From Lachnospiraceae bacterium (GTDB taxonomy: Bacteria; Bacillota; Clostridia; Oscillospirales; Ruminococcaceae), in contig JAMPFE010000001.1 of NCBI GenBank assembly GCA_023664705.1, positions 197,230-261,229 of the forward strand: 64,000 nt of DNA, given 5' to 3'. Every line of letters starts with the position of its first letter. Position 1 is the stretch's first letter. The translations under genes were made by a program, and so were the position numbers. Below the pieces are notes generated by a model. It ran no database searches. It was not told the DNA's origin and saw only the letters and a program-made list of their open reading frames with translations. This document shows, in pieces, positions 6,118 to 51,296 of this stretch.

Positions 6118-6146
6118 GAAAATGCGCCGTAAAAACGGCGCATTTC
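6118..6146. terminator. bidirectional intrinsic terminator between convergent pepP-like and telA-like genes
   Basis: GAAAATGCGCCG-loop-CGGCGCATTTC stem with A/T runs on both sides. Confidence 0.75.
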
Positions 6147-6154
6147 TTGCAAAA

Positions 6155-6187
6155 CCAACTACTAACAACTATTCTCCGATAACTATC
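6155..6187. repeat. solo 'arm' copy of the intergenic palindromic element family, abutting the telA stop codon
   Basis: CCAACTACTAACAACTATTCTCCGATAACTATCA closely resembles the right arms at 7510-7543 and 11103-11138, sharing the pattern CAACTATTC-N7-AACTAT. Confidence 0.6.
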
Positions 6188-7364
6188 ACGCTTTCATGCG
6201 CTTTTTGTAGTCGGTCTTTATCTGCTCGAGAGCGACGGCGTCCTGCTTGCGCTTTTCACGCGCCTGATCCTGTATAGCCTGAACCTCGTCGATGCCGTTG
6301 ACGATAGTCTGCCACGTCTGCTGGAGCGTCTCCACCTTGATTGAGGAGTTCGCCGCCATTGCAGCCACCATTTTAGACTGGTCGACGGTGTTCTGAGCGT
6401 TCTTGATGAGCATTTCGTTGGTTTTCTCGTCGAGAGCCGCGAGGGAGTCCGCCTGTATCTTCTGCCTTTTCAGCATGATAGCCTGCGCGAGCGACTGCTT
6501 GAACACGGGCATCGTGATGATGAACGCGGAGTTTATCTTGCGAACCAGATTGAGGTTGGAGTACTCCATGGTCTTCAGCATGGGAACGGTCTGGAGCGCG
6601 ACGTTCTCGGCGATCTTCAGGTCCATAACGCGCTGGTCGAGTATCTCGCGCATCTGCTGCAAATTCGACAAGTCCATGCGGATAGTGCCGTCGTCGGGGT
6701 TCGCCTCGACCTTTGCCTTGTATTCGTCGATGAATTGGTCGAGCTCCTTGACAGCCTGCTCGCCCGCCATGATGTACTTGACGAGCTGCTGATAGTAGCC
6801 GAGGTTCGCCTCGTACATATTGCCGAGCTTGGCGTTCGCCTGCTCTATCTCGGTCTCGTACTGCTTGAGCTGAACGTATACCTTGTCAATCTCCTTGCCC
6901 ATGGTGTCGTACTTGTTGAGTATCTTGTCGAGCTTTTTCTTGAGATTGCCGAAAAGCCCGGGCTTGTCGTCCTGAATTTCCTTGATGTCGAACTGATCCA
7001 TAATGGCGGCGAGGTGCTTGAGCATAACGCCCGTATCGTTTATCTGCTCGATGCTCATGGAGTTGAGGACTTGGTCGGAAGCCTGCGATATCTGGTCGGC
7101 AGCCTCCGCGCCGAATTTCACGATAGTCGAGCTGTCGTTGACGTTTATCGTGGAGACGAGCTGGTCTATCTCCTTGCTTGTGGCGAGCTGCTGCTTTATC
7201 TCGTCGGTCTTTACGACGATGTTGAAGTTCTTCGCCTCCTCGATCTTAGCGTCGAGGATAGCGGGAGACGTTGTCGGAACGGCATTCGTAACGACCGCCG
7301 TGGTCTCGACCTCCGTGTTGGTCTGCTGAGCGGCAGCCGCGCCCGGTGTGAATTGTAATCCCAT
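6186..7364 (-). CDS. telA: TelA / YaaN-family toxic anion resistance protein
   Basis: Long coiled-coil protein with the TelA-type pattern (IVKFGAEAADQISQASDQVL...). It lies 3' of a YceG-like gene, as in the B. subtilis yceG-yceH pair. Confidence 0.85.
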   Translation of the reverse strand: MGLQFTPGAAAAQQTNTEVETTAVVTNAVPTTSPAILDAKIEEAKNFNIVVKTDEIKQQLATSKEIDQLVSTINVNDSSTIVKFGAEAADQISQASDQVLNSMSIEQINDTGVMLKHLAAIMDQFDIKEIQDDKPGLFGNLKKKLDKILNKYDTMGKEIDKVYVQLKQYETEIEQANAKLGNMYEANLGYYQQLVKYIMAGEQAVKELDQFIDEYKAKVEANPDDGTIRMDLSNLQQMREILDQRVMDLKIAENVALQTVPMLKTMEYSNLNLVRKINSAFIITMPVFKQSLAQAIMLKRQKIQADSLAALDEKTNEMLIKNAQNTVDQSKMVAAMAANSSIKVETLQQTWQTIVNGIDEVQAIQDQAREKRKQDAVALEQIKTDYKKRMKA

Positions 7365-7380: not shown

Positions 7381-7543
7381 CAGCTAGTTATTAGAGAATA
7401 GCAGTTAGTAGTTAGTTAAGGAAGAAATTCGGACGGTCACGTTCATAGCGAAACCTAAAAGCACCTTGGGGTTACGCTATAAACGTTTCCGTTATCGACA
7501 CTACCTTAACTGGAAACCAGCAACTATTCACTAAAAACTATTA
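7381..7543. repeat. palindromic intergenic element, copy A (yceG-like / telA spacer)
   Basis: About 40-nt imperfect inverted arms rich in TAGTTA flank a core. The core has the hairpin ACGTTCATAGCG (7439-7450) / CGCTATAAACGT (7475-7486) and a central AAGCACCTT motif. The right arm ends at the yceG-like stop codon. Confidence 0.8.
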
Positions 7544-9709
7544 GTGTTTCCCGAACAGCTTTCCGAAAAAACCGCCGTTCTTTTCCTCGGAGGGTATCTT
7601 GAATTTCGGAACCTCCACGTCATATAAAAATTGGTTCATTATATGCTCTTCAAACGCGTCGGACGAGACGTAGGTCTCGAGATTTTTGTAGCCCGTCGGC
7701 GTGTATACGAGTATGTCAAAGCCTATCAGATTGCACAGCACGAGGTGTATGCACTCCCAGAGCGTGAACGTGTCCTCAACCGCGTCGACGTATATCACCT
7801 TCGGTATCGCCCTCGTGAAGTCAAACCGCTGTATTATCTGCATAAAGGACTTTGTAAGGCTCATTCCGTGGTACAGTATACTGCACATCAGCTCGTCGCC
7901 CTGCAGCTTCACAAACCCGCTTGACGCCGCCTCCTGCAGCTTGTAGAACAGCATATCCTGTATGCGGTCGGGCAGATAGCTGAATTTGTTGAGCGTGCTC
8001 GCTTTCAGCTTTTCAACGTCGTATTGCCCGTTGCGGTAAAACTGCCGATAAACCGACAAATCGACCGCGGGCTCCTCGGGGTTTTTCGCCTTTACGAACA
8101 GGAGCGTGTCGGGGGTGAGCTTCTGCCTTATATCCTCCCAGTAGTTCCCGAGATTGCCGTTCTCAACGCCGCTTATCTTCGCGAAGATATTCGGCACGGA
8201 CACCAGATTTCCCGCCGTCGCGAAGCCCGTCCTGAACCGCGCCTCCTGTTTCCAGAGGATGGCAATTTCCTCGAACGTCGTTTTCAGCGTAACGGATTGG
8301 CTGTTCGGGAACTGAAAGCTCCGATAGATGCCCGTATCGCCGCCGTACAGCATGGTGTCCAGATCGCGCTCCGCGGAATACGCCACGGTCGCGACCTTCA
8401 TCTTTATCGCCTTGTTCGGATAGCTTCCGCTCTCCTTGCTCTGCGGCAGCTCGAATATCTGCATCCTCCCGCCGATGTTCCTGTCGACGGCAAGCGCGAG
8501 GTTGCCTTTGTTCGGCGTGATGTAAACGGTATCGAACCCGCACCGCGACATAAAATTGAGGAAATACATCTCCGACTGCGAGATGTCGCCGTAGTACAGT
8601 ATCACGGGGATATCCTCGTAGCGCACCGCGTACTTCCGCGCCTGCGTGCAGCGGTACAGCCACGTTATCAGCTTGTTGCCGTAATTCAGCACGACGGTCT
8701 GATTGCCCGTGTTCAGCTCGTTGAGCAGCTCCGTGAGCGTTTTCCGCGCAAGCGCTGTCCGCATGGGGTCGCCGCTCAGCGTTATCTGCATCGCCAGCGC
8801 GTCTATCATCTCCGAGGTGCTTGTCCTCGGCACCGTCCCGAGCGCGCGGACCTCGTCCGCGTTCGGGTTTTCAAGCGGCTTCTCGATAAAGATGAGCTGC
8901 TTTTTCAGCCCCGCGAAGCCCTCCTTGAACTTGACGAGCATATTCGTATACACGGTCTCCTCGTCGAAGCCTATCAGCGCCGCCGAGTACACGGGTATCT
9001 CCCCGTCCTCGGTGTACACGCCGCCGTTCCCGATAACGCGGGACTTCCTGTCTTTGAGAACGTCCTCGAATATCCCCGCCGCCGACGTGTCGAGCCGCTT
9101 TACGAGACCGCTCACGCGCTCTCCCTCGGCGCGCATTTCGGCGAGCTTAGCCTCCCTCGAAAGGTCTATCTTCCCGAAATCTATCTGTATCGGCGACGTT
9201 ATCGGACCGCCCTTTACCGTCACATCGTCCTTGTACGGGAACTTGCCGAAATCCGCGTCCAGACCGTAGCTGACGACCGTCACCTTAACGCCCGCCGCGG
9301 CGAGCATATACAGGAAATACAGCTCCCTGAGCGTTGCCGAGCCTATATACAGCACGGCGCCCGGTCTTGCCCCGAGGTACTTTATCAGCCAGCAGAGTAT
9401 CACGAAGTAGGTGTTTTTCTTGTTGGCGCCGCATTCCGCGACCGCTTTTGCCATTATCTCGGCGAGCTTGGCGCTGTCGCACGGCAGGTTTATCTTGTGC
9501 AGGAACATATCTAAGCCGCGCTTGATGTCCTCCGCGTTCTCGAAGCTCGACGCGGTGTATTCCGCGGCTTTCGCTATCTCGTCGGTAGTCGCGAGCGGCA
9601 GCTTCTCTTTAAAGAACAGCCCGTTTTTCTGCGCCGCGACAAACTGTTCAATTAAGAATCCCCGAAACCCGTCGGGATCGTCATACCCGACATATCTCGT
9701 AAATTCCAC
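7541..9709 (-). CDS. YceG-like protein of Ter clusters (function unknown)
   Basis: 722 aa with a GTG start and AGGGGG SD. The call rests on position between TerD-domain genes and telA, as in B. subtilis yceCDEFGH, and on general resemblance to the YceG_bac family. It needs HMM confirmation. Confidence 0.6.
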   Translation of the reverse strand: MEFTRYVGYDDPDGFRGFLIEQFVAAQKNGLFFKEKLPLATTDEIAKAAEYTASSFENAEDIKRGLDMFLHKINLPCDSAKLAEIMAKAVAECGANKKNTYFVILCWLIKYLGARPGAVLYIGSATLRELYFLYMLAAAGVKVTVVSYGLDADFGKFPYKDDVTVKGGPITSPIQIDFGKIDLSREAKLAEMRAEGERVSGLVKRLDTSAAGIFEDVLKDRKSRVIGNGGVYTEDGEIPVYSAALIGFDEETVYTNMLVKFKEGFAGLKKQLIFIEKPLENPNADEVRALGTVPRTSTSEMIDALAMQITLSGDPMRTALARKTLTELLNELNTGNQTVVLNYGNKLITWLYRCTQARKYAVRYEDIPVILYYGDISQSEMYFLNFMSRCGFDTVYITPNKGNLALAVDRNIGGRMQIFELPQSKESGSYPNKAIKMKVATVAYSAERDLDTMLYGGDTGIYRSFQFPNSQSVTLKTTFEEIAILWKQEARFRTGFATAGNLVSVPNIFAKISGVENGNLGNYWEDIRQKLTPDTLLFVKAKNPEEPAVDLSVYRQFYRNGQYDVEKLKASTLNKFSYLPDRIQDMLFYKLQEAASSGFVKLQGDELMCSILYHGMSLTKSFMQIIQRFDFTRAIPKVIYVDAVEDTFTLWECIHLVLCNLIGFDILVYTPTGYKNLETYVSSDAFEEHIMNQFLYDVEVPKFKIPSEEKNGGFFGKLFGKH

Positions 9710-9729
9710 CTTGCGTACCCCCTAAGCTA

Positions 9730-10962
9730 TTATTCGTCAACTACTTCGATGCCGTAGCGGTTGCAGAGCTTCGCCATGCCGTCCTTGTAGCCCGCGCCGA
9801 CCGCCGATATTTTCCATTCGCCCTTGTACAGATAAAACTCCAGAGCCACGACGGTAGCCTCCGCCGAAAGCCCGTCCATAACGAACGAAACGCGCTCCCC
9901 GCCCGCTCTTATCGACACGCGCGGCGTTCTCACCGACGCGAAATTTTTCACGGTATCGCCCGCGTATATCGAGTAAGCCAGCGCTATCCTCCGCACCCTG
10001 AAATCGACCTTCGCCAAGTCGACCTCGATGTGCCCGTCCGCGGGAACGTACACGACCTCGCCGTTTTCGGAGCGCTCGTTGCCGAAGAAAATCAGCCCCG
10101 CGTCGCCGAGCGACCGTTCGTCCTCGCCGAGCAGGAACACATAGGGGTCGATCTCATATCCCCTCGGCTTTTCGCAGGTGAAGAAGATATCAAATCGGCT
10201 GCCTATGTATTGAGACAGCGAAACGCGCTGCCCCCGCCTCATCGCGAGCGCCGGCAGCGACTTATCGGGCGTTCTCGTCATCGAGATAACGTCCGTCGCC
10301 GCGGGCGCGCTTATCGGCTCGGGGAGCGGCGCGCGCGAAAAATCGCGCTCGGGAGCGTCGTATATGCGCTTGTTTTCGGCTCTTTCGGCATTCGCGGCGG
10401 GTCTGCCCGTAAGGTATATCCTGCGCGTGAATTTGCTTTTGAACAGCACCTCCGCGTACAGATAGGTCTGCGCCGAAATGCCCGAAACTGTGACGGTAAG
10501 CTCGCTGCGCCCCGCGTTCAGCGTACTCGGCGAGAACGCGACCTCGCGGATATTGCAGACTATCTCGGTCTTGTCGGGAACGTTTACGGCGAGCGTGAAC
10601 GTATTCACGCTGTCAGCCGCGAATTCCCCAAGCCCGATAGTCCTCGGCACGTCGAAAAAGCCGTCCTCCGCGCCGAAACCGCGCACGCCGCCGAGCACCT
10701 CGATGTCCTTTGCCGAAGCGAGAACGCCCGCCGAAACGGCGATGTCGTTAAGACCGCCCTCCGTGAGCTCCGCGCGGATATTCTCGATAGAAACGCCGTT
10801 TGAGTTGATCTCGATAACGGGGGAGCTTTTCGACCAGATAGTGGTGTTTTTGCCGACAAGGCGCAGGGGCTTGCTTATCACAAGCGGTCCCTCGAATTCG
10901 CCCGACGGCAGCGTCACGCAAGACCCCGCCGCCGCGCCGTCGATAAGCCCTTTTAAGTCCAC
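9730..10962 (-). CDS. TerD-domain protein with about 230-aa N-terminal extension
   Basis: The C-terminal ~170 aa is a TerD fold (IDPYVFLLGEDERSLGDAGLIFFGN ... EFYLYKGEWKISAVGAGYKDGMAKLCNRYGI). The N-terminal part is beta-rich and was not recognised. GTG start with AAGGGGG SD. Confidence 0.85.
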   Translation of the reverse strand: MDLKGLIDGAAAGSCVTLPSGEFEGPLVISKPLRLVGKNTTIWSKSSPVIEINSNGVSIENIRAELTEGGLNDIAVSAGVLASAKDIEVLGGVRGFGAEDGFFDVPRTIGLGEFAADSVNTFTLAVNVPDKTEIVCNIREVAFSPSTLNAGRSELTVTVSGISAQTYLYAEVLFKSKFTRRIYLTGRPAANAERAENKRIYDAPERDFSRAPLPEPISAPAATDVISMTRTPDKSLPALAMRRGQRVSLSQYIGSRFDIFFTCEKPRGYEIDPYVFLLGEDERSLGDAGLIFFGNERSENGEVVYVPADGHIEVDLAKVDFRVRRIALAYSIYAGDTVKNFASVRTPRVSIRAGGERVSFVMDGLSAEATVVALEFYLYKGEWKISAVGAGYKDGMAKLCNRYGIEVVDE

Positions 10963-10980
10963 AAGCCCCGCCCCCTTTGA

Positions 10981-11138
10981 TAGTTAATAGTTTAATAGCC
11001 GCTAGTTGTTAGTTAATGTTTGGCTGCGAACGGTCACGTTTATAGCGACAGGAAAAGCGCCTTGGAAATACGCTATAAACGTTTCCGCTATCGTCACTTC
11101 CTTAACTGGCAACTAACAACTATTCACTATCAACTATA
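10981..11138. repeat. palindromic intergenic element, copy B (terD / TerD-fusion spacer)
   Basis: About 38-nt arms are largely complementary (TAGTTAATAGTTTAATAG... versus ...CTATTCACTATCAACTATA). The core has a perfect 12-bp stem, ACGTTTATAGCG (11036-11047) / CGCTATAAACGT (11071-11082), with a loop containing AAGCGCCTT. The right arm overlaps the terD stop codon. Confidence 0.85.
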
Positions 11139-11718
11139 CGTTAACGCCGTAGGCTCGGCAAAGAGCCTCCAGACCGCCCTGATAGCCCGCCGCCACCGCG
11201 TTGAACTTCCAGTCGCCGTTGTAGCGGTATATCTCGCAGACCACGAGCGCCGTCTCAATAGAGAATTCCTCAACGAGGTCGAAGCGCAGGACCTCCTCGC
11301 CGCCGACGTCGTCGGGAGTGTCTATCTTAACAACGCGGACGTAGGAGTTGGATACCTGCCCGAAGTTCTGATGCTTCTGCTCCGCGTCGAAAATCGTTAC
11401 CGTAACGGCGATCTTCTCAATTTCCGCGGGTATCTTGGAAAAGTCGATGATGATAGCCTCGTCGTCGCCGTCGCCCTCGCCCGTTCTGTTGTCGCCCGTA
11501 TGCACAACAGCGCCGTTTCTCGCCGAGAGATTGTTGTAGAAAATGAAGTCCTCGTCCTTAAGCACCTTGCCGCTGCTGCCGAGCAGGAACACGCACGCGT
11601 CCAAGTCGAAATCCTGACCGCCGTCGTAGCGGTTGGTGTCCCAGCCCAGACCGATACGCGCCATAGTTACCGATTTGTCAAGGCTCACGCGCTGACCCTT
11701 AGAAAGATTTACTGCCAT
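11134..11718 (-). CDS. terD: TerD-family stress protein
   Basis: 194 aa, canonical TerD over its full length: GWDTN...[24 protein letters not shown] (Ca-binding acidic loop), [25 protein letters not shown]. Confidence 0.95.
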
Positions 11719-11785
11719 AATTGTTTCCTCCGTAGATTATATTTTACCGTATTCCCCCGCGCCGCAGGGGAAACGGCGAGTTACC

Positions 11786-14533
11786 TCAGTTGCCTTTGCC
11801 CGCCGAGTTTGCGATCGCTTTTCTGATAAGGTCTATCGGGATTATCGAGATTGCGGGGATAAGCACCACCAGCCACTCGACGAGGTTCAGTCCCCAGCCC
11901 GAGAGAATACCTCTGCCGAGGTAGGTCATCAGTATCTGAACTACCGCGATAATGCCGAACACCGTCAAAAAGCCCTTGTTTTTGCCGAGATTGTCGAACA
12001 AATTCATGCGGTCGGTGCGCGCGTTGAACGCGTTGAACACCGCGATGAAGATGAAGAATGCGAAGTACGCCGTGTGGAGTATCGCGTGCGGCTCGTTTTC
12101 GATGTGGATATCGCGCAGCCAGCCCCAGCTTTCAAGATAGCTTACGGGATCGCCGCTCGGGAACGACCCGAGTATAAGCATCGCTATCGACAGCGCGAAA
12201 GTCCAGCCCGCGCCGACGATAATTTCCGACATCATATATTTGCTGATTATCGGCTCGTTTCTGCGCTTCGGCTTTTCTTTCATAAAGCGCTCGAGAGGCG
12301 GCTCTCCGCCGAACGCCAGCGCCGCGAGGGTGTCCATTACGAGGTTGACCCAGAGTATCTGGATAACGGACAGCGGATTTGCCACGCCGATAAGCGGGCA
12401 GACGAACGAGACCAGAACCGCCGCCACGTTGATAGTGAGCTGGAACACGATGAATTTGCGTATCGAGTTGAAGATCGTGCGCCCGTAGAGTATCGCGCGG
12501 TCTATCGAGTTGAAGTTGTCGTCGAGGATAACGATGTCGGAAGCCTCTTTCGCGACCTCCGTGCCGCCGCCCATAGCGAAGCCGACGTCGGCTTTCTTGA
12601 GCGCGGGGGAGTCGTTCACGCCGTCGCCCGTCATGCCCGCGACGAGGTCAAGCTCCTGCGCGAGACGCACCAGACGGCTCTTGTCGGTAGGCAGCGCGCG
12701 CGCGATAACGCGGATATCCTTTAGCTTTGCCTTGATGTCGTCGTCGGACATCTTCGCAAGCTCGTCCGAGGTGAGCATAAGGTTGCTGTCGGAGTCGATA
12801 AGCCCGGCTTCTTTGGCGATAGCGACGGCGGTCTCCTTGCGGTCGCCCGTTATCATAACGACCTGCACGCCCGCGCCCTTGACCTCTTTGATAGCGGTGA
12901 CGGACTCGGGGCGAACCTCGTCGCGTATGCCCAGACAGCCCACGAGCGTCCAGTTGTTGCCCTCGGGCAGCGATTCCTCGCCGAGAGCGTCCTCGGAGGT
13001 CGCCACGGCAAGCACGCGTATAGCGCGGTTGGCAAGCTCGTCTATCTTCGCGTTGAGCGCGTTCATATCGAACGGCTGCTTTTTGCCGTCCTTGTCGTAG
13101 TAGTGGGAGCAGCGCTGCAAAATCTTCTCGGGCGCGCCCTTGATAAGCGAGAGGTCGTATTCGCCTTCGACCTGCGTCGCGGAGTATTTGTTCGTGGAGT
13201 TGAACGGAATGTTGCCGACAGCCTTAACGACAGCCTTGCACTCGGTGTTCATGGCATAGCCGAGGATAGCGCGTTCCGTGGCGTTTCCGCCGAGCACGCG
13301 GCGCTCCTTGCCCTCGCCCGAAATCATCGAAAGCGTGTTCTTGTGAATGGAAAGCGACAGCAGGTCGCCGAGCTTTCCGCCGACGTCGTCAAAGGTCTTG
13401 TATTCGTTTACGGCGCCGTCGAGGAAGTTGATGGCCTCCAGTTTGCCCTTGGTGATAGTGCCCGTCTTGTCGGAGAACAGGATGTTCAGCGAGCCCGCGG
13501 TCTCGATACCCGCGACCTTGCGCACGAGAACGTTGTCCTTGAGCATTTTGCCCATATTCTGTGCCGAAACGATAGCTATCATCAGCGGCAGACCCTCGGG
13601 CACCGCCATAACGATGATGATGACCGCCAGCATAACCGCCTCAATAAGCGCCTTAAGCAGCGCCGCCCACGCGAATACGCCGCCCGGCGCGAGGAACGCC
13701 ATAGGGGCAAAGCCCGTATCGAACAGGATAGTTTTCGCCAGCATCGCGACAGCGATAGCCACGCCGCCGATATAGCCGAACTTGGAGATGCCGTTCGCGA
13801 GCTTGCCGAGCTTTACCTTCAGCGGCGTTTCGCGGTCGTCCTCTGTCTGCAGCTCGGAGGCTATCTTGCCGTACTCGGACTTGTCGCCGACGACCGTGAC
13901 CTGCATTACCGCGTTGCCCGAGCAGACCACCGCGCCGCGGTATACCTTGTATTCGCTGTCGAAGTTGGTGTTTTCGTCGGTGTCGACCCACCCCTCGGGT
14001 ATCGCGAATTTCTTAGCCTCGCGGCTCTCGCCGTTCAGCACGGACTGGTCTACCTTGATGTCGCCGTCGATTATAATGCCGTCGGCGGGTATCTTATCGC
14101 CCGACTGGAGCAATATCGCGTCCCCGACAACGATGTCGTTTATCGCGACCTCGGAGATAACGCCGTTGCGGTAGGTCTTGACCATAATGCGGGAAGCCTC
14201 CTCCTGAAGCTTCTGGAACGCGTTTTCGTTGCGGTATTCGGAGAACGTCGAAACCAGCGTCGCTAGGCATATCGCGATGAAGATGCCGAGCGGCTCGTAC
14301 CACTCGGGAGCGCCCTCCACGAACGGATGCCCGTCCGCGTTCTTCACCAGACCGAGCACTGCAAGCACGACGTTGATGAGCAGCGCGACGATGAGTATCT
14401 TTATCATGGGGTCGCCGAGATTGCCCTTGAGCTTATCCCAGAAGCTCTCGTGAGCCTGCTCCGTCATTGAATTGTCGCCGTATTTAGCCTTGCTTTCGGC
14501 AACCTCCTTGTCTGTCAGACCGAATTTTTTCAT
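11786..14533 (-). CDS. P-type Ca2+-transporting ATPase (type II, PMCA-like)
   Basis: DKTGTIT phosphorylation site, TGDGVNDSPALKKADVG hinge, PEGLP in TM4, NLVMDTLAALAFGGEPP in TM6, and a cation-ATPase N-terminal domain. Confidence 0.92.
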   Translation of the reverse strand: MKKFGLTDKEVAESKAKYGDNSMTEQAHESFWDKLKGNLGDPMIKILIVALLINVVLAVLGLVKNADGHPFVEGAPEWYEPLGIFIAICLATLVSTFSEYRNENAFQKLQEEASRIMVKTYRNGVISEVAINDIVVGDAILLQSGDKIPADGIIIDGDIKVDQSVLNGESREAKKFAIPEGWVDTDENTNFDSEYKVYRGAVVCSGNAVMQVTVVGDKSEYGKIASELQTEDDRETPLKVKLGKLANGISKFGYIGGVAIAVAMLAKTILFDTGFAPMAFLAPGGVFAWAALLKALIEAVMLAVIIIVMAVPEGLPLMIAIVSAQNMGKMLKDNVLVRKVAGIETAGSLNILFSDKTGTITKGKLEAINFLDGAVNEYKTFDDVGGKLGDLLSLSIHKNTLSMISGEGKERRVLGGNATERAILGYAMNTECKAVVKAVGNIPFNSTNKYSATQVEGEYDLSLIKGAPEKILQRCSHYYDKDGKKQPFDMNALNAKIDELANRAIRVLAVATSEDALGEESLPEGNNWTLVGCLGIRDEVRPESVTAIKEVKGAGVQVVMITGDRKETAVAIAKEAGLIDSDSNLMLTSDELAKMSDDDIKAKLKDIRVIARALPTDKSRLVRLAQELDLVAGMTGDGVNDSPALKKADVGFAMGGGTEVAKEASDIVILDDNFNSIDRAILYGRTIFNSIRKFIVFQLTINVAAVLVSFVCPLIGVANPLSVIQILWVNLVMDTLAALAFGGEPPLERFMKEKPKRRNEPIISKYMMSEIIVGAGWTFALSIAMLILGSFPSGDPVSYLESWGWLRDIHIENEPHAILHTAYFAFFIFIAVFNAFNARTDRMNLFDNLGKNKGFLTVFGIIAVVQILMTYLGRGILSGWGLNLVEWLVVLIPAISIIPIDLIRKAIANSAGKGN

Positions 14534-14602
14534 TTTGTAATGATCCTTTCATATATTACTTATTGTATTGTTACGCCAAAGGCATAATTGCGGTTTTTGC
14601 GG

Positions 14603-16087
14603 TCATTTTCCGCCGATTATCGTCGTCTCGCACAGCAGCCCGTTTTCCTTGTCGCTCATGCGGAACATCGCCAGATCCTTTAGCTCGACGGCGCTGCCCT
14701 TCGGCACGAGCCTCCCCGACGGCGACGTCATGCCCTCTATGCCGCTGTTGACGAGCAGCCACATACCGTTATAATAGGCGATATAGGCGCGCATGGATGG
14801 GTCTGCCTTTTCATCGTTGTGGACGTTTGAGAACACATGCCAGTCGAACAGCGGCATTTTGTCGTAGACGATGACCTCGCTTTTGCCGCGGTAAACGCCC
14901 TTTTTGCCGCGCATTTCACTCTTGAAGCCGAGGCGGATTATCTTCCCCGCGGCGCGCGTTCCGCAGAACGGGCAGACGGGCGCGTTTTCGTCGCGCAGTA
15001 TGAACCATTTCTTTTCGCAGTGCGGGTTCGCGCACGGCACGAGCCTGTCCCAAGCCCTGAGCAGCTCCGTTTCCCATTCCATTGCGGCAGGACGCTCCGA
15101 GGGGTTATGCAACCCGTCCACGAACGCCCTCAGAAACAGCTTCTCCAAGCCCTTTGACAGAGACTGTATCGTCACGCCGAGGTTAGGAGGTCTGTTCGAG
15201 CGGTCGTCGGGGTTCTCAATAAAGGTAGCCTTTTCGCCGAGCGCCAGAAAATCGTCCTCCTCGGCGCTTTTGGTGCTGTAAATTTTCGGTCCGATAAGGG
15301 GGTGCCGAAAAAAAAGATATTCGTAGATGAGCACGGGCAGCGCGTGCAGGTCGGTCTGCACGCACGGCAGCGCCCGCCGCGGGTCGTTGTAGTCGAGCTC
15401 CAGCGTCGCGAGCACCTCGGGCGCGATGTAGCCGCGCGTCCCGACGACCTCGGGGGCGTACTTGTTCGGCACGACGAGCGAATCGATGTCGATGACTACG
15501 GCGGAGCCGCTTTTCGGGTCGATGAGCACGTTGTTGCAGGATAAGTCGGAGTGCGCCAGACCCGCCTGATGCATTCTGCGCACCGTCCGCGCGAGCCCTA
15601 TCGCGGTTTTCAGCATGGTGCGGAAATCGCCGCGCTCGGCGGGCTCGAGGTACTTGCGGTTGCGCCCCGTGAACCAGTTGGATTTCTTGTCCTTGCCCTT
15701 CAAATTCAGCACCGCGGACGCGCCGTCGCCGAAGAAGAAGTTGCTCGGGTAGGTCGGGCAGACAATGCCGAATTCGGGGCTTTTCACGATCGCCACGGGC
15801 CAGCAGAACCGCTGCCTGAAATAATCCGCGGTCTTTTCGGTGTTCCCGAGCGCGCCGCCGTCCGCCTCCGAGAGCGTGGGGTTGTAAATTCCCACAATGG
15901 TGCGGATCCGGTCCTGCAAACGCGGATTTTCGGAGTCGCGCGGGTTGTTGAAAAACTGCACCGCGAACCTCCTGTCGGGCGTGAAAAACGTGTGCTTCAT
16001 ACCGCCGCGCGGCGCGTTTGCGTCGTATACATATTGAATTTTGCTGCCGTTTTCCAGCACGGCAGTAAGCACTTCGCCGCTTATCAT
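14603..16087 (-). CDS. Ser/Thr protein kinase of the TerY-P triad, with C-terminal zinc ribbon and beta-rich domain
   Basis: HSDLSCNNVLID catalytic loop, DIDS (DFG-like), GTRGYIAPE, and CxxC...CxxC (CANPHCEKK...CPFCG). The ATG at 16087 has a GGAAGGA SD. The track start at 16129 is a TTG without an SD. Confidence 0.88.
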   Translation of the reverse strand: MISGEVLTAVLENGSKIQYVYDANAPRGGMKHTFFTPDRRFAVQFFNNPRDSENPRLQDRIRTIVGIYNPTLSEADGGALGNTEKTADYFRQRFCWPVAIVKSPEFGIVCPTYPSNFFFGDGASAVLNLKGKDKKSNWFTGRNRKYLEPAERGDFRTMLKTAIGLARTVRRMHQAGLAHSDLSCNNVLIDPKSGSAVVIDIDSLVVPNKYAPEVVGTRGYIAPEVLATLELDYNDPRRALPCVQTDLHALPVLIYEYLFFRHPLIGPKIYSTKSAEEDDFLALGEKATFIENPDDRSNRPPNLGVTIQSLSKGLEKLFLRAFVDGLHNPSERPAAMEWETELLRAWDRLVPCANPHCEKKWFILRDENAPVCPFCGTRAAGKIIRLGFKSEMRGKKGVYRGKSEVIVYDKMPLFDWHVFSNVHNDEKADPSMRAYIAYYNGMWLLVNSGIEGMTSPSGRLVPKGSAVELKDLAMFRMSDKENGLLCETTIIGGK

Positions 16088-16265
16088 ATTTTTATCCTTC
16101 CGCGTAAGCGATTTCGCCTTTAAAATCAATGCTTTTTTTGAACGTTTTCCGAGATTTTTTTAACTGCGGTATATGCGATAACAAAAGGGATTTCCGCGTA
16201 AAATCATTGCCGAAAAACCTCGAAAATTTCACGTTTAAAAAAAGACGTGTTTTTCGTTCCGAAAA

Positions 16266-17729
16266 TCAGCGCAAGACCCTCACCGAAACGAGCGTTCTGT
16301 CGTCGAACGAGCCGCGCTCGTTGTAGTTGTCGAGCCATACGCGCAGGCGCTCCTCGGGAGTGTCGCCGATGTTCATTCTGAACGCCTCAAGCGAATGGCA
16401 CCAAAGCATTCCACGCTTGTCCCAGAGCGCCGCCATCGCCTCCTCGGATTTGTCCCCGAGGAGCTGTTTCGCGTACTGGAGCGCCACGCTCTGCTGCGTG
16501 AGCGACACCGAGCGGAACCGTATCGGCGCGGGATCCTCGCCGCCCCTGCCGCGCTCTCCCTCCATGGGCAGAACGCCGTTCAGGCAAAGGTCGAGGTACA
16601 GCCGCTGCATCATCGGCTGAGCGGGGAAATAATCGTCCGCGACGCCGTCCGACATCAGCAGCACGGTATCGGAGCTGCCGCGCGAAATGCGCGTTTTTGC
16701 GCCGATGACCTCGGCTTTGGAGTTCTTTTCGGAGAGGAAATCCGTCTCGCCCGAAAACGCGCCGCTGTCCGCCTCGCCCATGAGCTTCAGGCAATGAGCG
16801 CTGTCCGCGGCGCTGTCGATTGCGCAGATACAGCCGTCGCCTATCTGCACGCACGCCATAAAGGCCTGCGGCTTGCCGCCGACCTCCACGGGCACTATCA
16901 CCGCCGCCAGAAACGTCGTCGAGAGGTCGCCGATGACGGGCTTGCGCCCCAGAGCGTCCTTGTACCTTTTGTCCTCGGAGAGCTTGGAAAGCTCATTCTG
17001 CTGCGCCGCGAAAGCCTCTCTCGCCGCCTCTTGGACAAGCGGCGCGACGCGTCCGCAGGCTGCCATAAACTCGGCTGAGTTTAAATCGGCGGCAAGCCCA
17101 GATTTAAGCGCGGGCATTGCCGAAAAAAGCTCCGTCGTTTTGGCTTTGAGATACGCCGCGGCGGTCTCCGCGCTGACGCGCGAGCCTATCCGTGAAAGCG
17201 GCTTGGAGCCCGCGCCGTCGCACACCACCGCGATAACGCAGTCGTCGGTGACGGCGGTCTCGAAATAGTCGTCGCAGTTCGTGCCCTCGTGCTTGTGCTT
17301 TTTGCCGCGCACGCGTGCGCCAGTTACTTCGGCAAACGGCGTAACTGTGCGCTTTTCGTGGTATTCCGAGTGCATTTCCGTGCCGTTGTCGACAATTTCC
17401 TTATATTGCCAGATAGACGCCGTATGCTCCATTACCTCCATATCCGAGAGGTGCGGGGCGGGGGCGAGCGGAGCGTTTTCCCGAGCCTTCTCGTCGGGCT
17501 TTGAAGCATCATTTTTCACATTTTGTGAATTATCCTCTTTCGGCAGCTCAACGGGCTTTTCATCGCTTTTGGGCGCGGCAGTGCCCTGCTCTTTAAGCGA
17601 CTTCTGTATTTTAAGGTACTCCTCCGCCGACATTATCGCGGGCTTTTTCCCGATGTCGTCGAACGTGATCGAGAGCTGCTGCTCGGCGCTTTCGCTCGGG
17701 GGAGCGGGGTTCATTTCGGTTTTATCCAT
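16266..17729 (-). CDS. PP2C-family Ser/Thr phosphatase of the TerY-P triad
   Basis: VVCDGAGSK and LLMSDGVADDY metal-binding motifs. About 130-aa low-complexity N-terminal region. Starts 19 nt after the vWA gene. Confidence 0.85.
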   Translation of the reverse strand: MDKTEMNPAPPSESAEQQLSITFDDIGKKPAIMSAEEYLKIQKSLKEQGTAAPKSDEKPVELPKEDNSQNVKNDASKPDEKARENAPLAPAPHLSDMEVMEHTASIWQYKEIVDNGTEMHSEYHEKRTVTPFAEVTGARVRGKKHKHEGTNCDDYFETAVTDDCVIAVVCDGAGSKPLSRIGSRVSAETAAAYLKAKTTELFSAMPALKSGLAADLNSAEFMAACGRVAPLVQEAAREAFAAQQNELSKLSEDKRYKDALGRKPVIGDLSTTFLAAVIVPVEVGGKPQAFMACVQIGDGCICAIDSAADSAHCLKLMGEADSGAFSGETDFLSEKNSKAEVIGAKTRISRGSSDTVLLMSDGVADDYFPAQPMMQRLYLDLCLNGVLPMEGERGRGGEDPAPIRFRSVSLTQQSVALQYAKQLLGDKSEEAMAALWDKRGMLWCHSLEAFRMNIGDTPEERLRVWLDNYNERGSFDDRTLVSVRVLR

Positions 17730-17748
17730 TCAATTCACCTGTATGCCG

Positions 17749-18390
17749 TTAAGGCACGATAACAAAGCCCTGAGGGGGCGGAGGGAGCTCGATGGGGTCG
17801 CCGGGCTTGGCGTCGATGCTCTTGGAGCTTGCCTTTATGGAGCTGGACACCCACGCGAAGAACTGCGCCATATCGCCCGCCGTGAGATTGTTCATCATAA
17901 GCACGTTGTTGGTAATTTTCTTGAGCGTGTTCGCGTTTGCGTTCGCGCCCGCGCCGCAGGCGATGATGTTGCCCGTGGAGACCTGCTTTATCGCGTCTAT
18001 GCCCTCGTCGAGGTTGTCTGTGGGCGCGCCGTCGGTCATAAGGAACACAAGCGGCTTCCAGTCGCCCTTCTGCGTGGCGGTGGAGGTATGCACCTCGTTT
18101 GTAATGCACTCCGCGAGCACCTTCAGCGCGCCGCCGAGCGCGGTAGCGCCGCCCGCCTGTATCTGCGGCTCCTTGAACAGCATAAGCTCGGTAAGCGGGC
18201 TTATCTGCCGCGCGGAGCTGTCGAACGTGATTATCGACAGAAACGCGGTCTCGAGCGCCTGAGGGTCGCCCTTAAGCTCCGAAATGAGCGTTTTGATGCC
18301 TTGCTTTACCGCCTCGATGGGCTCTCCCGCCATTGAACCGCTGCAGTCCAGCAGCAGATACACGGGTAATCTTCTGATGTAATCGGACAT
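17749..18390 (-). CDS. terY: TerY-like von Willebrand factor A (vWA) protein
   Basis: MIDAS motif LLLDCSGSM followed by FLMTDGAPTD. The ATG at 18390 has a GGAGG SD 8 nt upstream and lies downstream of the consensus promoter at 18447-18475. The track start at 18441 would lie at or upstream of the predicted TSS. Confidence 0.88.
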   Translation of the reverse strand: MSDYIRRLPVYLLLDCSGSMAGEPIEAVKQGIKTLISELKGDPQALETAFLSIITFDSSARQISPLTELMLFKEPQIQAGGATALGGALKVLAECITNEVHTSTATQKGDWKPLVFLMTDGAPTDNLDEGIDAIKQVSTGNIIACGAGANANANTLKKITNNVLMMNNLTAGDMAQFFAWVSSSIKASSKSIDAKPGDPIELPPPPQGFVIVP

Positions 18391-18446
18391 TTTTTTATCC
18401 TCCGTTAATAAATCGGGCGCCACATACCCATAAATCTTCAAAATAC

Positions 18447-18475
18447 ATTATACCTTAATTTTCACGATATGTCAA
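18447..18475 (-). promoter_or_regulatory. sigma-A consensus promoter for the TerY-P / Ter island
   Basis: On the minus strand: TTGACA (18470-18475), a 17-nt spacer, then TATAAT (18447-18452). Confidence 0.7.
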
Positions 18476-18543
18476 TAGTTTTGACAAAAAATTACGGATA
18501 ATTGCTCTCCGCGCTGTGAAAAAACAACAAAAACGGCTGTAAT

Positions 18544-19239
18544 TTGCCCGTGAGATATGTTGCAATGCCGCTCTTGATTTTTTTTGAAAAATATGGTATA
18601 ATACCGAATAGGGTTCGGCGGTTTGCCGACGATAAAGCGATCGTTAAGTTAACAGAGGTGTTTACTATTAAGATAAAAGGCATAGATATTAAGGAAACTT
18701 TCGCCGCTCTGAAAACCAAGGAGGGTAGGCGGGAGTTCTGCAAAAAGCACAAGGAGATAATCCTGTACTTCGTTTTCGGCATCGGGACGACCGTCATTTC
18801 AATGCTCTCGTATTATCTTTGCCGCGTGATTTTTCCCGACCAAGAGAGCGTTCCGAAATGGCTTTCGTGGATATTCAACATAACCTCGCGCTTCGGCATC
18901 GAGAGCAACACGGCGCTGCCCGTTATCGTTTCGTGGTTTTTGTCGGTGACGTTCGCGTTCCTCACCAACAGGGTGTACGTTTTCAACAGCACGGCGAACA
19001 CCGTCGGGAAGTTCCTCGTGGAGGCGCTTAAGCTCTACGCCTCGCGCATCGCCACGCTTTTCGTCGACCTGCTGATAATGTTCCTGCTCGTCGACCTGCC
19101 CGGCATCCACAACGTCATTTACGAGTTCTGCGCGAAGGTTTTCTCGAACGTTATCGTGCTTATACTTAATTATATACTAAGCAAGATATTTGTATTCAGA
19201 ATGAAACGGCCCAAGAAGAAGCGGGGTAAACAGCCATGA
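18544..19239 (+). CDS. GtrA-family membrane protein (start codon uncertain)
   Basis: Four TM helices with GtrA-like signatures (LYFVFGIGTTVIS..., FLTNRVYVFN, LNYILSKIFVF). The track start precedes the candidate promoter, so the true start probably lies between 18609 and 18740. No clean ATG/SD pair was seen there. Confidence 0.7.
   Translation: MPVRYVAMPLLIFFEKYGIIPNRVRRFADDKAIVKLTEVFTIKIKGIDIKETFAALKTKEGRREFCKKHKEIILYFVFGIGTTVISMLSYYLCRVIFPDQESVPKWLSWIFNITSRFGIESNTALPVIVSWFLSVTFAFLTNRVYVFNSTANTVGKFLVEALKLYASRIATLFVDLLIMFLLVDLPGIHNVIYEFCAKVFSNVIVLILNYILSKIFVFRMKRPKKKRGKQP
18574..18602 (+). promoter_or_regulatory. candidate extended -10 promoter upstream of the GtrA-like gene
   Basis: TTGATT, a 17-nt spacer whose last bases give TGG, then TATAAT (18597-18602). 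Confidence 0.5.
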
Positions 19240-19916
19240 GAATGAGAAGAAAGAAGAACCTCGACGAGCGCCTTGCCGCGTGCAAGCCCGTTCTGCTGCA
19301 TATGCAGTGCCAAAACGAGCACGCTAACGATCCGCTCTCCGAGGAGTTTTTCGTAAGCTCCGAGAAAACGTTCGGCAACGGTAATCCGCTCTATCTGGAG
19401 ATAGGCTGCGGAAAGGGCGGCTTCGCGGTGGAGTTCGCGCGGCAAAATCCCGATATAAACCTTATCGCGCTGGAGAAAACGCCGAACGTCCTTGTCACGG
19501 GCGCGGAGGAGCAAATGCGCCTGCAATTGCCGAACCTGCGCTTCTGCATGGGACAGGCGGAGTATCTCGACCATATGTTCCACGAGAACGCCGTCGACAG
19601 GCTCTTCCTCAATTTCAGCTGCCCATTCCCGAAAAACCGCTACGCCGTTCACCGCCTGACGCACGCGCGTTTCCTTGAAATTTACCGCAGAGTGCTGAAA
19701 AACGGCGCGGAAATTCATCAAAAGACCGACAATATGCACTTTTTCGAGTTCTCGATAGAGCAGTTTTCGGCTAACGGGTTTATGCTGCAAAATGTCTCGC
19801 TGGACCTGCATAACAGCGGCTTCGAGGGGAATATCGTCACCGAATACGAAAAGCGCTTCAGCGACCTCGGGCAGCCCATATACAGGCTCGAGGCGGTCAA
19901 CTTGGGGGCGCGATGA
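19236..19916 (+). CDS. trmB: tRNA (guanine46-N7)-methyltransferase
   Basis: LEIGCGKGGF SAM motif and PFPK motif. Overlaps neighbours by 4 nt on both sides. Confidence 0.88.
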   Translation: MRMRRKKNLDERLAACKPVLLHMQCQNEHANDPLSEEFFVSSEKTFGNGNPLYLEIGCGKGGFAVEFARQNPDINLIALEKTPNVLVTGAEEQMRLQLPNLRFCMGQAEYLDHMFHENAVDRLFLNFSCPFPKNRYAVHRLTHARFLEIYRRVLKNGAEIHQKTDNMHFFEFSIEQFSANGFMLQNVSLDLHNSGFEGNIVTEYEKRFSDLGQPIYRLEAVNLGAR

Positions 19917-20443
19917 TCGAATACAGAGAGTTAAATGAAGCGGAAATCAACAGGGAGTTATTCGCTGCCTTTATCCGTCGGCAGGTCGTTACGGACTGTT
20001 GGCGGCGGGTCAACGGCGAGTGGACGATAAAAAGCGACCCGTTCATCGACGACTGGAGCGAGGAAGATTACGCTGTTCTGATAAAATGCCTGAAAAACAC
20101 CGTCTCAAGCGGCGGCGTTGTGTACGGCGCGTTCGACGGCGGCGCGCTGAAGGGCTTTGCTTCGGTGGAGCCGCGGCTGTTCGGCGGCGAACAAAAGTAC
20201 CTCGACCTATCGAGTATGCATGTCTCGCAGGATCGACGCGGCAGGGGTATCGGACGGGCGCTGTTCGCGAGAGCGTGCGCGTGGGCAAGGGCTCACGGTG
20301 CGGAGAAGCTGTACATCTCAGCTCATTCGGCTGTGGAAAGTCGGGCGTTCTACACGGCTGTGGGCTGCGTTGAAGCGGTGGTTTACAACCGGGAGCACGT
20401 CCGCGCGGAGCCGTTCGACTGCCAGCTTGAACGAAAACTGTAA
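19913..20443 (+). CDS. GNAT-family N-acetyltransferase
   Basis: Motif A: VSQDRRGRGIGRALF. Confidence 0.8.
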   Translation: MIEYRELNEAEINRELFAAFIRRQVVTDCWRRVNGEWTIKSDPFIDDWSEEDYAVLIKCLKNTVSSGGVVYGAFDGGALKGFASVEPRLFGGEQKYLDLSSMHVSQDRRGRGIGRALFARACAWARAHGAEKLYISAHSAVESRAFYTAVGCVEAVVYNREHVRAEPFDCQLERKL

Positions 20444-20528
20444 CGGCATAATTCCGCAGGCGGCGGCGAATAATACACTTTACCGACGGTTATTTTGCAA
20501 AAAAATATTACGATAAGGAGATTTTGAT

Positions 20529-21542
20529 ATGAAAAAGCTTACGGGCAAGTTCCCGAGCGCGAGCGGGCTCTGCGACGCGCGTTTTTACATCTACACCCCC
20601 GAAAAGCCCAAGGCGGCGCTTATGCTGTCGCACGGCATGTGCGAGTATATCGAGCGCTACGAGGACTTCGCGGGATTCCTCTGCGGCAACGATATCGCCC
20701 TCGCGGGCAACGACCACATAGGTCACGGGAACTCGATAACGGACGAGGATATGCTCGGATATTTCGGTCAGGAGCGCGGCTATGTGAATATGGTGCGCGA
20801 CCTGCACAGAATGAAAGCGGTGCTGGAGCGGCAGTTCCCGAACATCCCCCACTTCCTTATGGGGCACAGCATGGGCAGCTTTCTGGCGAGGATTTATCTG
20901 TCGAAGTATTGCAGCGTTACCGTGGAGAACAGCGGCTGCGCCGACTGCACGAACGTCGACGATGCGGTCTGCGGCTATTGCGGAAGATATAACGTGCTCT
21001 CGGGCGGCGACCGCTGGAACGGCGCGGTCATAATGGGCACCGCGGGGGGCTTGACGGGCTCCGCGCCCTTGCGCCGTGCCTTGGACATCATGGCTCGCAA
21101 TCACGGCGACCTCTACCGACACGAGCTGGGCGCAAAGCTGGCTTTCGGATTTTTCAACCTGCGCACCGAGAACCGCCGCACGCCAAACGATTGGCTTTCG
21201 CGCGACGACGCCAACGTCGACAAATTCTGCGCCGACCCGAAGTGCAATTTCACGTTTACCGTCGCGGGCTTCCGCGACCTGTTGAACGCGCTGATGTGCG
21301 CGAACAGCAAGCCCGTTATCGAAAATACGCCCACCGACCTGCCGATGCTTTTCCTGAGCGGCGGAATGGACCCCGTGGGCGAATACGGGAACGGCGTGCG
21401 CAGCGCGGCGGCGAAATATCTCTCCCACGGCTGCGACGTAAACCTGCGCATTTACAGAGAGGCTCGCCACGAGCTGATATTCGAGCTCAACCGCGCCGAG
21501 GTAATGGAGGACATTCTGGAATTTCTTGTCAAAAGAATATAG
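20529..21542 (+). CDS. alpha/beta hydrolase (lysophospholipase / monoacylglycerol lipase-like) with a Cys-rich insertion
   Basis: HGMCEY...DHIGHGNS, GHSMGS nucleophile elbow, and C-terminal ARHEL. An extra segment containing CADC...CGYC follows the nucleophile helix. Confidence 0.85.
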   Translation: MKKLTGKFPSASGLCDARFYIYTPEKPKAALMLSHGMCEYIERYEDFAGFLCGNDIALAGNDHIGHGNSITDEDMLGYFGQERGYVNMVRDLHRMKAVLERQFPNIPHFLMGHSMGSFLARIYLSKYCSVTVENSGCADCTNVDDAVCGYCGRYNVLSGGDRWNGAVIMGTAGGLTGSAPLRRALDIMARNHGDLYRHELGAKLAFGFFNLRTENRRTPNDWLSRDDANVDKFCADPKCNFTFTVAGFRDLLNALMCANSKPVIENTPTDLPMLFLSGGMDPVGEYGNGVRSAAAKYLSHGCDVNLRIYREARHELIFELNRAEVMEDILEFLVKRI

Positions 21543-21707
21543 TTGAAAAAGTTGACAGTTGACAGTGTACAGTTGACAGTTATTGTATGGCTGAAAGCAG
21601 TCACGTTTGTAGCGACTCGGCAAATAAGCGCTTATCCGAGTGACAATAAACGTAATCTTCCGCATCATTACCTTAACTGTCAACTATCAACTGTAAACTG
21701 TAAACTT
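21541..21707. repeat. palindromic intergenic element, copy C (after the hydrolase stop codon)
   Basis: Arms are built from GTTGACAGT units (AAGTTGACAGTTGACAGTGTACAGTTGACAGTTA versus CCTTAACTGTCAACTATCAACTGTAAACTGTAAACTT) and about 31 of 37 positions are complementary. The core CACGTTTGTAGCGACTCGG..AAGCGCTT..CCGAGTGACAATAAACGT is homologous to copies A and B. Confidence 0.8.
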
Positions 21708-21710
21708 TGC

Positions 21711-21735
21711 AAAAGGGCGCTTTCCGCGCCTTTTT
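21711..21735 (+). terminator. intrinsic terminator after the hydrolase gene and element C
   Basis: AAAAGGGCGC-TTTCC-GCGCCTTTTT followed by CTTT. Confidence 0.6.
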
Positions 21736-21809
21736 CTTTGCCGCGGAATAATTCCCCCAAAAATTCCCATAATAAAAATACAAATTTAACTAAGTGGGGG
21801 TAGTAAAAA

Positions 21810-38212: not shown

Positions 38213-38303
38213 ATGCGACCTCCTTTTCCTATATATAGATTTTAACATTTTTTATATTATTTGTCAAGGGCTTTACAAACGGAAAATAAAATGTTAAAAT
38301 AAA

Positions 38304-38392
38304 GGCGTGCCGCCGTGGCGGCAGCTTCTGCCTTGGGCAGTTCGTTTCATAGAAAATTTCGGCGTCAAGCGTTTTCGCTCGACACAAAAAAA
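38304..38392. repeat. intergenic element, copy E (inverted partner of copy D)
   Basis: GGCGTGCCGCCGTGGCGGCAG...TTCGTTTCATAGAAAATTTCGGCGTCAAGCGTTTTCGCTCGACACAAAAAAACTTC. See copy D. Confidence 0.75.
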
Positions 38393-38477
38393 CTTCTGTA
38401 TTACACGCGCCATAGCGCCCAACCTTTTTGTTTTTTCGCGCACTGTATATATGAAAACGCTTTCGGAGGCTTTCAAA

Positions 38478-51271: not shown

Positions 51272-51296
51272 TTTTCTGCTTCGGCGCAGCCGAAGT

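Follow-up and report, generated by a model that had tools for sequence, protein, structure and literature searches.

The region analysed here, called the window throughout, is a 64-kb stretch (64,000 nt) of a Lachnospiraceae bacterium (NCBI GenBank assembly GCA_023664705.1, contig JAMPFE010000001.1, positions 197,230 to 261,229 of the forward strand), which YceG homologues place in uncultured Oscillospiraceae. Its Ter genes (telA, the genes for a YceG_bac protein and a TerD-domain protein, and terD) lie on the minus strand, and genes for an alpha/beta hydrolase and a ClpC-like ATPase lie further along on the plus strand. The remaining window is ordinary chromosome with dnaB, rplI, ftsH, mreBCD, the RNase J gene and spoIVB. 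Three imperfect palindromes of about 165 bp each, built around a common core of 75–85 nt, occur in the window and are referred to as elements A, B and C. A preliminary description, made from the DNA letters only, had located these copies, and reading the sequence again confirmed all three positions.

Judged by the strands of the flanking genes, A and B lie inside a minus-strand operon and C lies behind a plus-strand gene. A and B fill the exact interval from a stop codon to the ribosome binding site (RBS) of the next gene, and C fills the interval from a stop codon to a terminator. The C-termini of the upstream proteins are the same as in relatives (GKH-stop, GVNV-stop and VKRI-stop), and the RBS and start regions downstream of A and B are retained. 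The stop-rich strand of the elements is the sense strand. Both earlier statements on placement were thus borne out, namely that each copy starts or ends at the stop codon of the yceG-like gene, terD or the hydrolase gene, and that two copies sit within the Ter operon, where transcription would include them. A terminator scan found no terminator-like site within A, B or C, and an identity of the elements as intrinsic terminators is ruled out, as there is no U-tract terminator inside any of them.

The core motif GTCACGTTYRTAGCGA has three matches on the plus strand, one per element, and the combination ATAAACGT-N17-CCTTAACTG occurs three times against 0.01 expected. The core is asymmetric and stands in the plus orientation in all three elements. 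It forms an imperfect hairpin of 75–85 nt by itself, and the elements are AT-rich relative to the genome. The apical motif reported before is present in the form AAGC(A/G)C(C)TT, as is the inner arm end CCTTAACTG. The 12-bp stem ACGTTTATAGCG/CGCTATAAACGT, which had been described as shared, is perfect in B only; A has one C/A mismatch, and C keeps only the 8-bp ACGTTTGT/ATAAACGT.

Each arm consists of some five heptanucleotides (NAGTTNN) in tandem, and two such arrays lie inverted around the core. Paired arms are 37–46 nt long and 78–88% complementary. Tandem Repeats Finder (TRF) detects period 7 at 11110-11137, 21550-21581, 21675-21706 and 51240-51271, and the mean lag-7 identity of the arms is 0.59 (shuffles: 0.29 +/- 0.03); the identity peaks again at lag 14. 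The actual unit is therefore 7 nt and not TAGTTA (A and B) or GTTGACAGT (C) as proposed previously. All six arms can be aligned with one another in the outward-reading orientation (consensus ~ATAGTTnAnAG-TGAATAGTTGnnAGTTGnCAGTTAAGG), so the arms of C, which had been thought to consist of units other than those of A and B, are homologous to them. Within C the two arms have been homogenised separately (AGTTGAC x3 on the left versus AGTTTAC x2 on the right), which is a signature of slippage within arrays.

An arm profile search of the window yielded two further arrays that stand alone, the solo arms S1 and S2 (Table 1). On the outward-reading strand each arm unit contains a stop codon, TAG in A and B or TGA in C (CAGTTGA). 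The AGTT strand has stops in three frames in five of the eight arms (both arms of A and of B, and the right arm of C) and in two frames in the left arm of C, S1 and S2; the AACT strand has fewer. With period-7 intergenic arrays and stops of this kind on one strand, the arms belong among the heptanucleotide tandem repeats, i.e., the long simple sequence repeats (LSSR), the short tandemly repeated repetitive sequences (STRR) and the TAACTGA type.

Table 1. Elements, solo arms, terminators and flanking genes in the window.
Feature	Position	Strand	Composition or basis	Placement
Element A	7385-7540	+	heptad arms 7385-7421 (left) and 7504-7540 (right), core 7422-7503	flanked by the yceG-like stop (TAA 7541-7543, - strand) and the telA RBS/start (7364)
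Element B	10981-11136	+	left arm 10981-11018, core 11019-11099, right arm 11100-11136	the arm's first TAG is the terD stop (11134-11136, - strand); the TerD-domain gene that follows has its RBS and start at ~10962-10978
Element C	21540-21708	+	arms 21540-21585 (left, AGTTGAC units) and 21671-21708 (right, AACTGTA/AACTGTC units), core 21586-21670	the left arm has the hydrolase stop TAG 21540-21542 (+) as its first triplet
Solo arm S1	6155-6185	-	TAGTTATCGGAGAATAGTTGTTAGTAGTTGG on - strand; close likeness to the left arm of A	directly past the telA stop TGA (6186-6188), ahead of the telA terminator
Solo arm S2	51239-51275	-	AAAAAGTTGACAGTGTACAATTGACAGTTGACAGTTT on - strand; matches the left arm of C including the irregular GTGTACA unit	in the gap from the mreD-position gene's stop (~51297) to a terminator-like hairpin that lies upstream of the PBP2 gene
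Intrinsic terminator of telA	6119-6146	-		downstream of S1, separate from the repeat
Terminator-like hairpin after C	21712-21740	+	GGGCGC-TTTCC-GCGCC then TTTTTCTTT; read from the sequence, not in the terminator-scan list	
telA	6186-7364	-	Pfam	
YceG_bac protein	7541-9709	-	Pfam	
TerD-domain protein	9730-10962	-	Pfam	
terD	11134-11718	-	Pfam	
P-type ATPase	11786-14533	-	Pfam	
Alpha/beta hydrolase	20529-21542	+	Pfam	
ClpC-like ATPase	21810-24125	+	Pfam	

Each element is predicted to fold into one long hairpin of ~60 bp, with energies of -53 to -58 kcal/mol for the plus strand. The corresponding z-scores against dinucleotide shuffles are -5.6 to -6.5, and none of 200 shuffles folds as well (0/200). 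Motif counts and folding thus agree with the earlier view of a real repeat family forming long hairpins. The complementarity runs through the whole core and is not limited to the termini. The minus strands fold with -60 to -64 kcal/mol, which makes the two strands about equal, and the fold is therefore uninformative on which strand matters. In the alignment of the three copies 87% of the cells pair, compared to 25–42% in slid controls. At 7 of 50 pairs both sides have changed with pairing kept. Compensatory arms had been taken to imply a selected structure; the doubly changed pairs are there, but they all lie in the arms, all separate C from A and B, and seven two-sided changes are also reached by 10 of 500 shuffles. 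Homogenisation of units in heptad arrays could give a compensatory-looking pattern without selection for pairing.

The same sites were compared in related genomes. Elements A and B recur in identical form in GCA_023664165.1, a metagenome-assembled genome (MAG) of the same species. In relatives at ~91% YceG identity the spacers are 36 nt (site B) and 61 nt (site A) and contain neither the element nor an array. In an 86% relative (L049, 4000-4038) the 38 nt that follow the hydrolase stop, up to the end of the contig, are free of arrays; the break falls at the position of element C, and a repeat may be hidden by it. Sites A, B and C are thus filled or empty between close species, the elements being absent in relatives at 84–91% protein identity. 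Three complete elements plus two solo arms within 64 kb, together with filled and empty orthologous sites, represent the dispersed pattern of MITEs (miniature inverted-repeat transposable elements), and the elements also have terminal inverted repeats around a short non-coding body.

From these comparisons we conclude that this species acquired the elements at the DNA level. The three elements share a non-repetitive core and irregularities of the arms, solo arms exist, and the units are present or absent among relatives; these features show that in this lineage DNA-level copying has carried whole and half units from one locus to another. The preliminary description had argued against a MITE-type spread, whereas the presence/absence pattern in close relatives and the solo arms point to spread at the DNA level.

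Further relatives carry other structures in the same gaps. In an 81% relative (L010/L011) two tandem palindromic elements follow the same terD stop (...GTTAACGTATAG). Their arms are ~86% identical to those of the window, and their core is another, shorter sequence with a small stem and compensatory differences between its two copies. A kinase gene at the L010 locus also takes its stop from an array of about ten TAGTTNN units, and the stop of telA is followed there by an AATTGAC array. Two further loci (L046, 8593-8662; L048, 8522-8590) have a 13–14-bp stem-loop in the gap that separates terD from the gene behind it, and the two species differ in this stem-loop by compensatory changes (TTTCTCTCCGCG/CGCGGAGAGAAA versus TTTTCTCCCCGC/GCGGGGAGAAAA). 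As no U tract follows, this stem-loop is likely an intercistronic stabiliser hairpin. Small hairpins are also seen at the yceG-telA site in L001, L046 and L010. Other long palindromic repeats of 150–260 nt, unrelated to A, B and C, occupy Ter-operon spacers in an 88% relative (L008, 8979-9187) and a 77% relative (L047, 7533-7765, 8349-8504 and 9739-10001), with types including GGCAAATTCAGC...GCTGAATTTGC and GCAAATTGCGAA...TTCGCAATTTGC. In this clade, several families of hairpin repeats seem to use the gaps of the Ter operon as hot spots.

Scanning the whole window with the Rfam 15 covariance models gave no match at the gathering score, in line with the earlier statement that the element is not a described RNA family. 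At E<=5 the sole overlap was a chance-level miRNA hairpin on A (21.8 bits against a threshold of 89 bits). The pattern GTCACGTTNNTAGCGA-N15-45-ATAAACGT had no matches in genome, metagenome and viral collections. For ATAAACGT-N17-CCTTAACTGNNAAC the genomes gave one match, in a Desulfocapsa MAG, which on reading proved to be a chance match. When 1.2 Mb of fetched loci were searched with an nhmmer profile of the core, all matches lay in the same-species MAG, and BLAST of element A against plasmids gave no match. As far as these scans reach, the core appears to be confined to this species.

The arms behave differently. The pattern (CAGTTGA)2CAG is found at 30 viral-contig loci, and about 10 of 34 distinct sites on viral contigs have an inverted array at most 260 nt away, typically around one or two GC-rich hairpins. 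One viral-contig site has an inner junction identical to that of the window, CAGTTAAGG ... CCTTAACT. BLAST of the viral contig L029 against phages gave no match. The T-type arm pattern is present at at least 120 metagenome loci, with extended heptad arrays in nearly all matches listed and an inverted partner array at 29 of the matches listed. Among the matches listed the metagenome contigs have a GC content of 30–64%, and 11 look cyanobacterial by their density of the highly iterated palindrome HIP1. The heptad arm type is thus widespread and combined with different cores. The earlier picture of a conserved core with freely varying arms is reversed across genomes, the core being found in one species and the arms with other cores.

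In a wider sample we asked how the arrays are oriented relative to open reading frames (ORFs). In 43 of 111 cases a long same-strand ORF adjoins the array at its 5' side, and in 13 of 111 a convergent ORF adjoins it at the other side. Within the clade of the window, 9 of 9 arrays are associated with a stop codon. This orientation-asymmetry test was used in place of an enrichment of ORF ends, which we discarded as evidence because it is partly trivial: the arrays stop every frame themselves.

Two side observations concern the viral contigs. Paired CAACTATTCCGAAAATTAGTT...GGGAATAGTTGG units beside GCGAAAACGTTTTCGC palindromes are common to two unrelated contigs (L012 at ~4190-4450 and L013 at ~12110-12370). 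In the contigs L028 (at ~3811), L022, L040, L032 and L043 an ORF seemingly runs through CAGTTGACAGTTGACAG(T/C)GGACAGTTGACAG stretches (in L028, for example, ATG AAG CAG TTG ACA GTT GAC AGC), and some heptad arrays may therefore be translated.

Other features of the window were noted in passing. The alpha/beta hydrolase has a 33-residue Cys-rich insert (C..C..C ... C..C, residues ~128-160) that is common only to its closest relatives (84–86% identity); homologues farther off (~304-309 aa) have no insert, including P0124, which is ~89% identical where aligned. A 12-nt unit, AACGGTTAAGAA, is repeated about four times in tandem at 45729-45776; the repeats overlap an OmpR-type response-regulator gene (45764-46429, minus strand) at its 3' end and reach into the gap ahead of an ABC-transporter operon (44701-45606, minus strand). 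These repeats look like direct-repeat binding sites for the OmpR-type regulator. Tandem 21-nt repeats GCAAAAAACTGCAAAACGGCT (54066-54135, 2.7 copies, with a 10-nt sub-period with CTGCAA) are followed by a terminator-like hairpin and sit in a long AT-rich gap upstream of a 768-aa ORF at 54219 that has no Pfam match. A 30-nt AT-rich near-perfect inverted repeat, ATTTTAACATTTTTTATATTATTTGTCAAG / CTTTACAAACGGAAAATAAAATGTTAAAAT (38239-38300), lies directly upstream of the gene for a 604-aa sigma-70-family protein (38307-40121).

We favour, with even confidence, the reading that A, B and C represent a dispersed, MITE-like repeat specific to this lineage, which has heptad arms and is transcribed as an intercistronic hairpin with an effect like that of repetitive extragenic palindromic (REP) sequences. 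The repeat may have spread as a MITE-like unit, or via recombination or template switching between heptad arrays, and stops in three frames together with self-folding could explain why it persists at these sites. A survival filter may have operated, by which an insertion is kept only if it ends translation immediately, folds on itself and lets transcription continue. Such a filter would fit the placement from stop codon to RBS or terminator, the stop-rich strand in the sense direction and the lack of an internal terminator.

Once inserted, the element would be co-transcribed as a long hairpin in an intercistronic region or 3' untranslated region (UTR), where it could act as a barrier to 3'-exonucleases, as a substrate of RNase III, or both. 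The elements might functionally replace the small stem-loops in the spacers of several relatives and so set relative mRNA levels. That the long hairpin does the job of these stem-loops is a reasonable suggestion, because relatives keep unrelated stem-loops in the same gaps. Concerted evolution of the units and selection on the fold may each have a part in keeping the arms complementary. A role like that of REP sequences or bacterial interspersed mosaic elements (BIMEs) had been suggested before; it is plausible in the light of the relatives' stem-loops. By analogy with REP and Correia elements, the elements would probably act at the RNA level as mRNA hairpins.

Several observations weigh against this reading. 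All of the full copies seen (n=3) lie inside 14 kb of the 64-kb window, and there is no transposase, integrase or REP-associated tyrosine transposase (RAYT) among the ORFs of the window; a search for a RAYT gene had been proposed as a check and was run on these ORFs. The borders of A, B and C share no direct repeat that could represent a target-site duplication, and a TA duplication would be indistinguishable from the TAG-rich arm ends. In the filled-versus-empty comparison the relatives' spacer content is replaced and not interrupted, so that there is no clean empty site. An element at the terD site in the 81% relative but not in the 91% relatives needs either loss or independent gain, and the sister species has no hairpin at this site. 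The three copies have one chromosomal orientation despite opposite transcription, with no transcription-consistent folding advantage, and the common orientation and equal strand folding do not favour a strand-specific RNA. Finally, the covariation support is thin and no more than suggestive, as it reflects one divergence event (copy C) in one lineage.

Some of these points would also fit a purely selfish or neutral MITE-like insertion, in which the hairpin is a by-product of the terminal inverted repeats and has no selected effect on the mRNA. We consider this possible but rather unlikely. It would account for the presence or absence among close relatives, the solo arms, and the single orientation whatever the transcription, with strands that fold equally, and the unrelated palindrome families in the same spacers of L008 and L047 suggest that the sites are permissive. 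The small, unrelated stem-loops at the same positions in several relatives hint instead at a useful hairpin, and the complementarity spans the whole core and not the termini alone; the missing target-site duplication and transposase speak against this kind of insertion too. The elements could also have arisen in situ, if heptanucleotides multiplied by slippage next to stop codons, intrastrand template switching (quasi-palindrome correction) made and maintained the inverted partner and gene conversion spread the likeness. The unit homogenisation particular to each arm of C points in this direction, as do 7-nt indels between Cyanothece strains (PMC4679880) and reports in which heptanucleotide repeats are the most abundant class of long simple sequence repeats in many bacteria and polymerase slippage is proposed as the cause (cited in PMC4679880 and PMC4692102). 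But A, B and C share the 80-nt non-repetitive core and odd irregularities of the arms, S1 corresponds to the left arm of A and S2 to the left arm of C, and copying between loci is therefore required rather than independent growth, which makes an origin wholly in situ quite improbable.

Other alternatives assign the function to the arrays or to the core. The regular 7-nt spacing of the conserved AGTT/NAG core and the asymmetry of 43/111 versus 13/111 would be expected if the heptad arrays were protein-binding sites, either in RNA, for a HutP-like protein (UAG-N4), or in DNA, for omega-type ribbon-helix-helix repressors, whose sites we take them to resemble; the palindrome would then set two arrays face to face. 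We give this little credence, as the units vary widely (TAGTTGA, CAGTTGA, AATTGAC, CGGTTGC, AGTGAAT), a variation more in keeping with slippage than with a fixed motif, no protein was identified as a candidate binder, and the arrays are predicted to be base-paired in the full elements. It also seems unlikely that NAGTTNN arrays at or next to stop codons represent a conserved cis-acting module that extends from Clostridia to Cyanobacteria and phages. Such a module could be the ends of an undescribed class of mobile elements that target stop codons or hairpins, or a signal for a widespread factor that steers the ribosome or the mRNA after termination, and the arms-plus-core palindromes of the window would in either case be one lineage's elaboration. 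That each element is an independent small RNA (sRNA) gene or an antisense RNA of the operon, with the core as the functional RNA, is very improbable. The core is conserved over the three copies, the left arm of C contains a promoter-like TTGACA-16-TATTGT, and a terminator follows C; A and B, however, have no comparable plus-strand promoter or terminator, Rfam gave no meaningful match even at E<=5, the core is absent from all other genomes examined, and near-palindromic symmetry is atypical of sRNA genes.

Heptanucleotide repeats are abundant, yet their function and origin are unexplained (PMC4679880, PMC4692102). The present locus presents heptamers as building blocks of a dispersed palindrome in an uncultured gut Firmicute, where it extends from stop codon to RBS in a conserved operon. 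The relatives, whose sites contain small hairpins, other palindromes or nothing at all, are clean comparators. They make it possible to test both the mobility of the elements and whether a long hairpin between cistrons adjusts the stability or stoichiometry of the mRNA. In practical terms, such elements break metagenome assemblies and can mislead the annotation of gene ends and the prediction of sRNAs in gut MAGs.

REP sequences and BIMEs, including REPINs, are co-transcribed intergenic palindromes of Enterobacteria and Pseudomonas that are dispersed in one genome and stabilise the upstream mRNA. The window elements are likewise palindromic, intergenic or intercistronic, and dispersed within one genome. 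REP units are GC-rich palindromes of 20–40 nt with a GTAG/CGTC head and depend on RAYT transposases, whereas the hairpins described here are ~160 nt long, have heptad arms that start with TAGTT and no GTAG head, and no RAYT gene (IS200/IS605-like Y1 transposase) is found in the 64-kb window. MITEs such as Correia, RUP, ERIC and BOX are non-coding, 100–200 bp long and bounded by terminal inverted repeats, and Correia hairpins are RNase III substrates. The window elements resemble them in being short and non-coding, with inverted terminal arms and presence or absence between relatives, and are modular like BOX. They differ in having heptad-array termini, solo arms and variable cores, with no target-site duplication or cognate insertion sequence (IS) found in the window. 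Integron attC sites were considered and rejected, as attC sites have conserved terminal cores (R''/L'' and L'/R') around a variable centre while within this genome the conserved part of the elements is the centre, there are no RYYYAAC/GTTRRRY ends and the window has no integrase.

In Nostoc, heptamer repeats near promoters or start codons affect expression through an unidentified partner. Elhai and co-workers are also said to have described in 2008 small mobile dispersed repeats of 21–27 nt from Nostoc that lie inside heptameric tandem repeats and in hairpin contexts, to which a core between heptad arms would be a parallel. TAACTGA heptamer direct repeats are found in Beggiatoaceae, Cyanobacteria and Bacteroidetes, and their function is unknown (MacGregor, 2015, PMC4679880). 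As in the window, these are intergenic tandem heptamers, and the reverse complement TCAGTTA (AGTTATC units) fits NAGTTNN; they have stops in all frames on one strand, which limits overlap with coding ends, and close relatives have shorter, repeat-free spacers (PMC4679880). TAACTGA arrays are mostly direct and just upstream of start codons, with one inverted set reported (PMC4679880), whereas the arrays of the window adjoin stop codons and form inverted pairs around a core, in Clostridia (Oscillospiraceae). The LSSR and cyanobacterial STRR (Mrazek et al., 2007, and Mazel et al., 1990, both cited through PMC4679880 and PMC4692102) are also intergenic period-7 arrays, sometimes inverted with stem-loop potential (PMC4692102), that vary fast in sequence and length. 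Compared to these, the window arrays are short (~5 units), imperfect and paired around a shared 80-nt core, and the whole unit occurs at several loci. In the literature searched, heptad arrays are not described as the inverted arms of a dispersed palindromic element in Clostridia. We class the window elements with known kinds (heptamer repeats and MITE/REP) and not as a new category.

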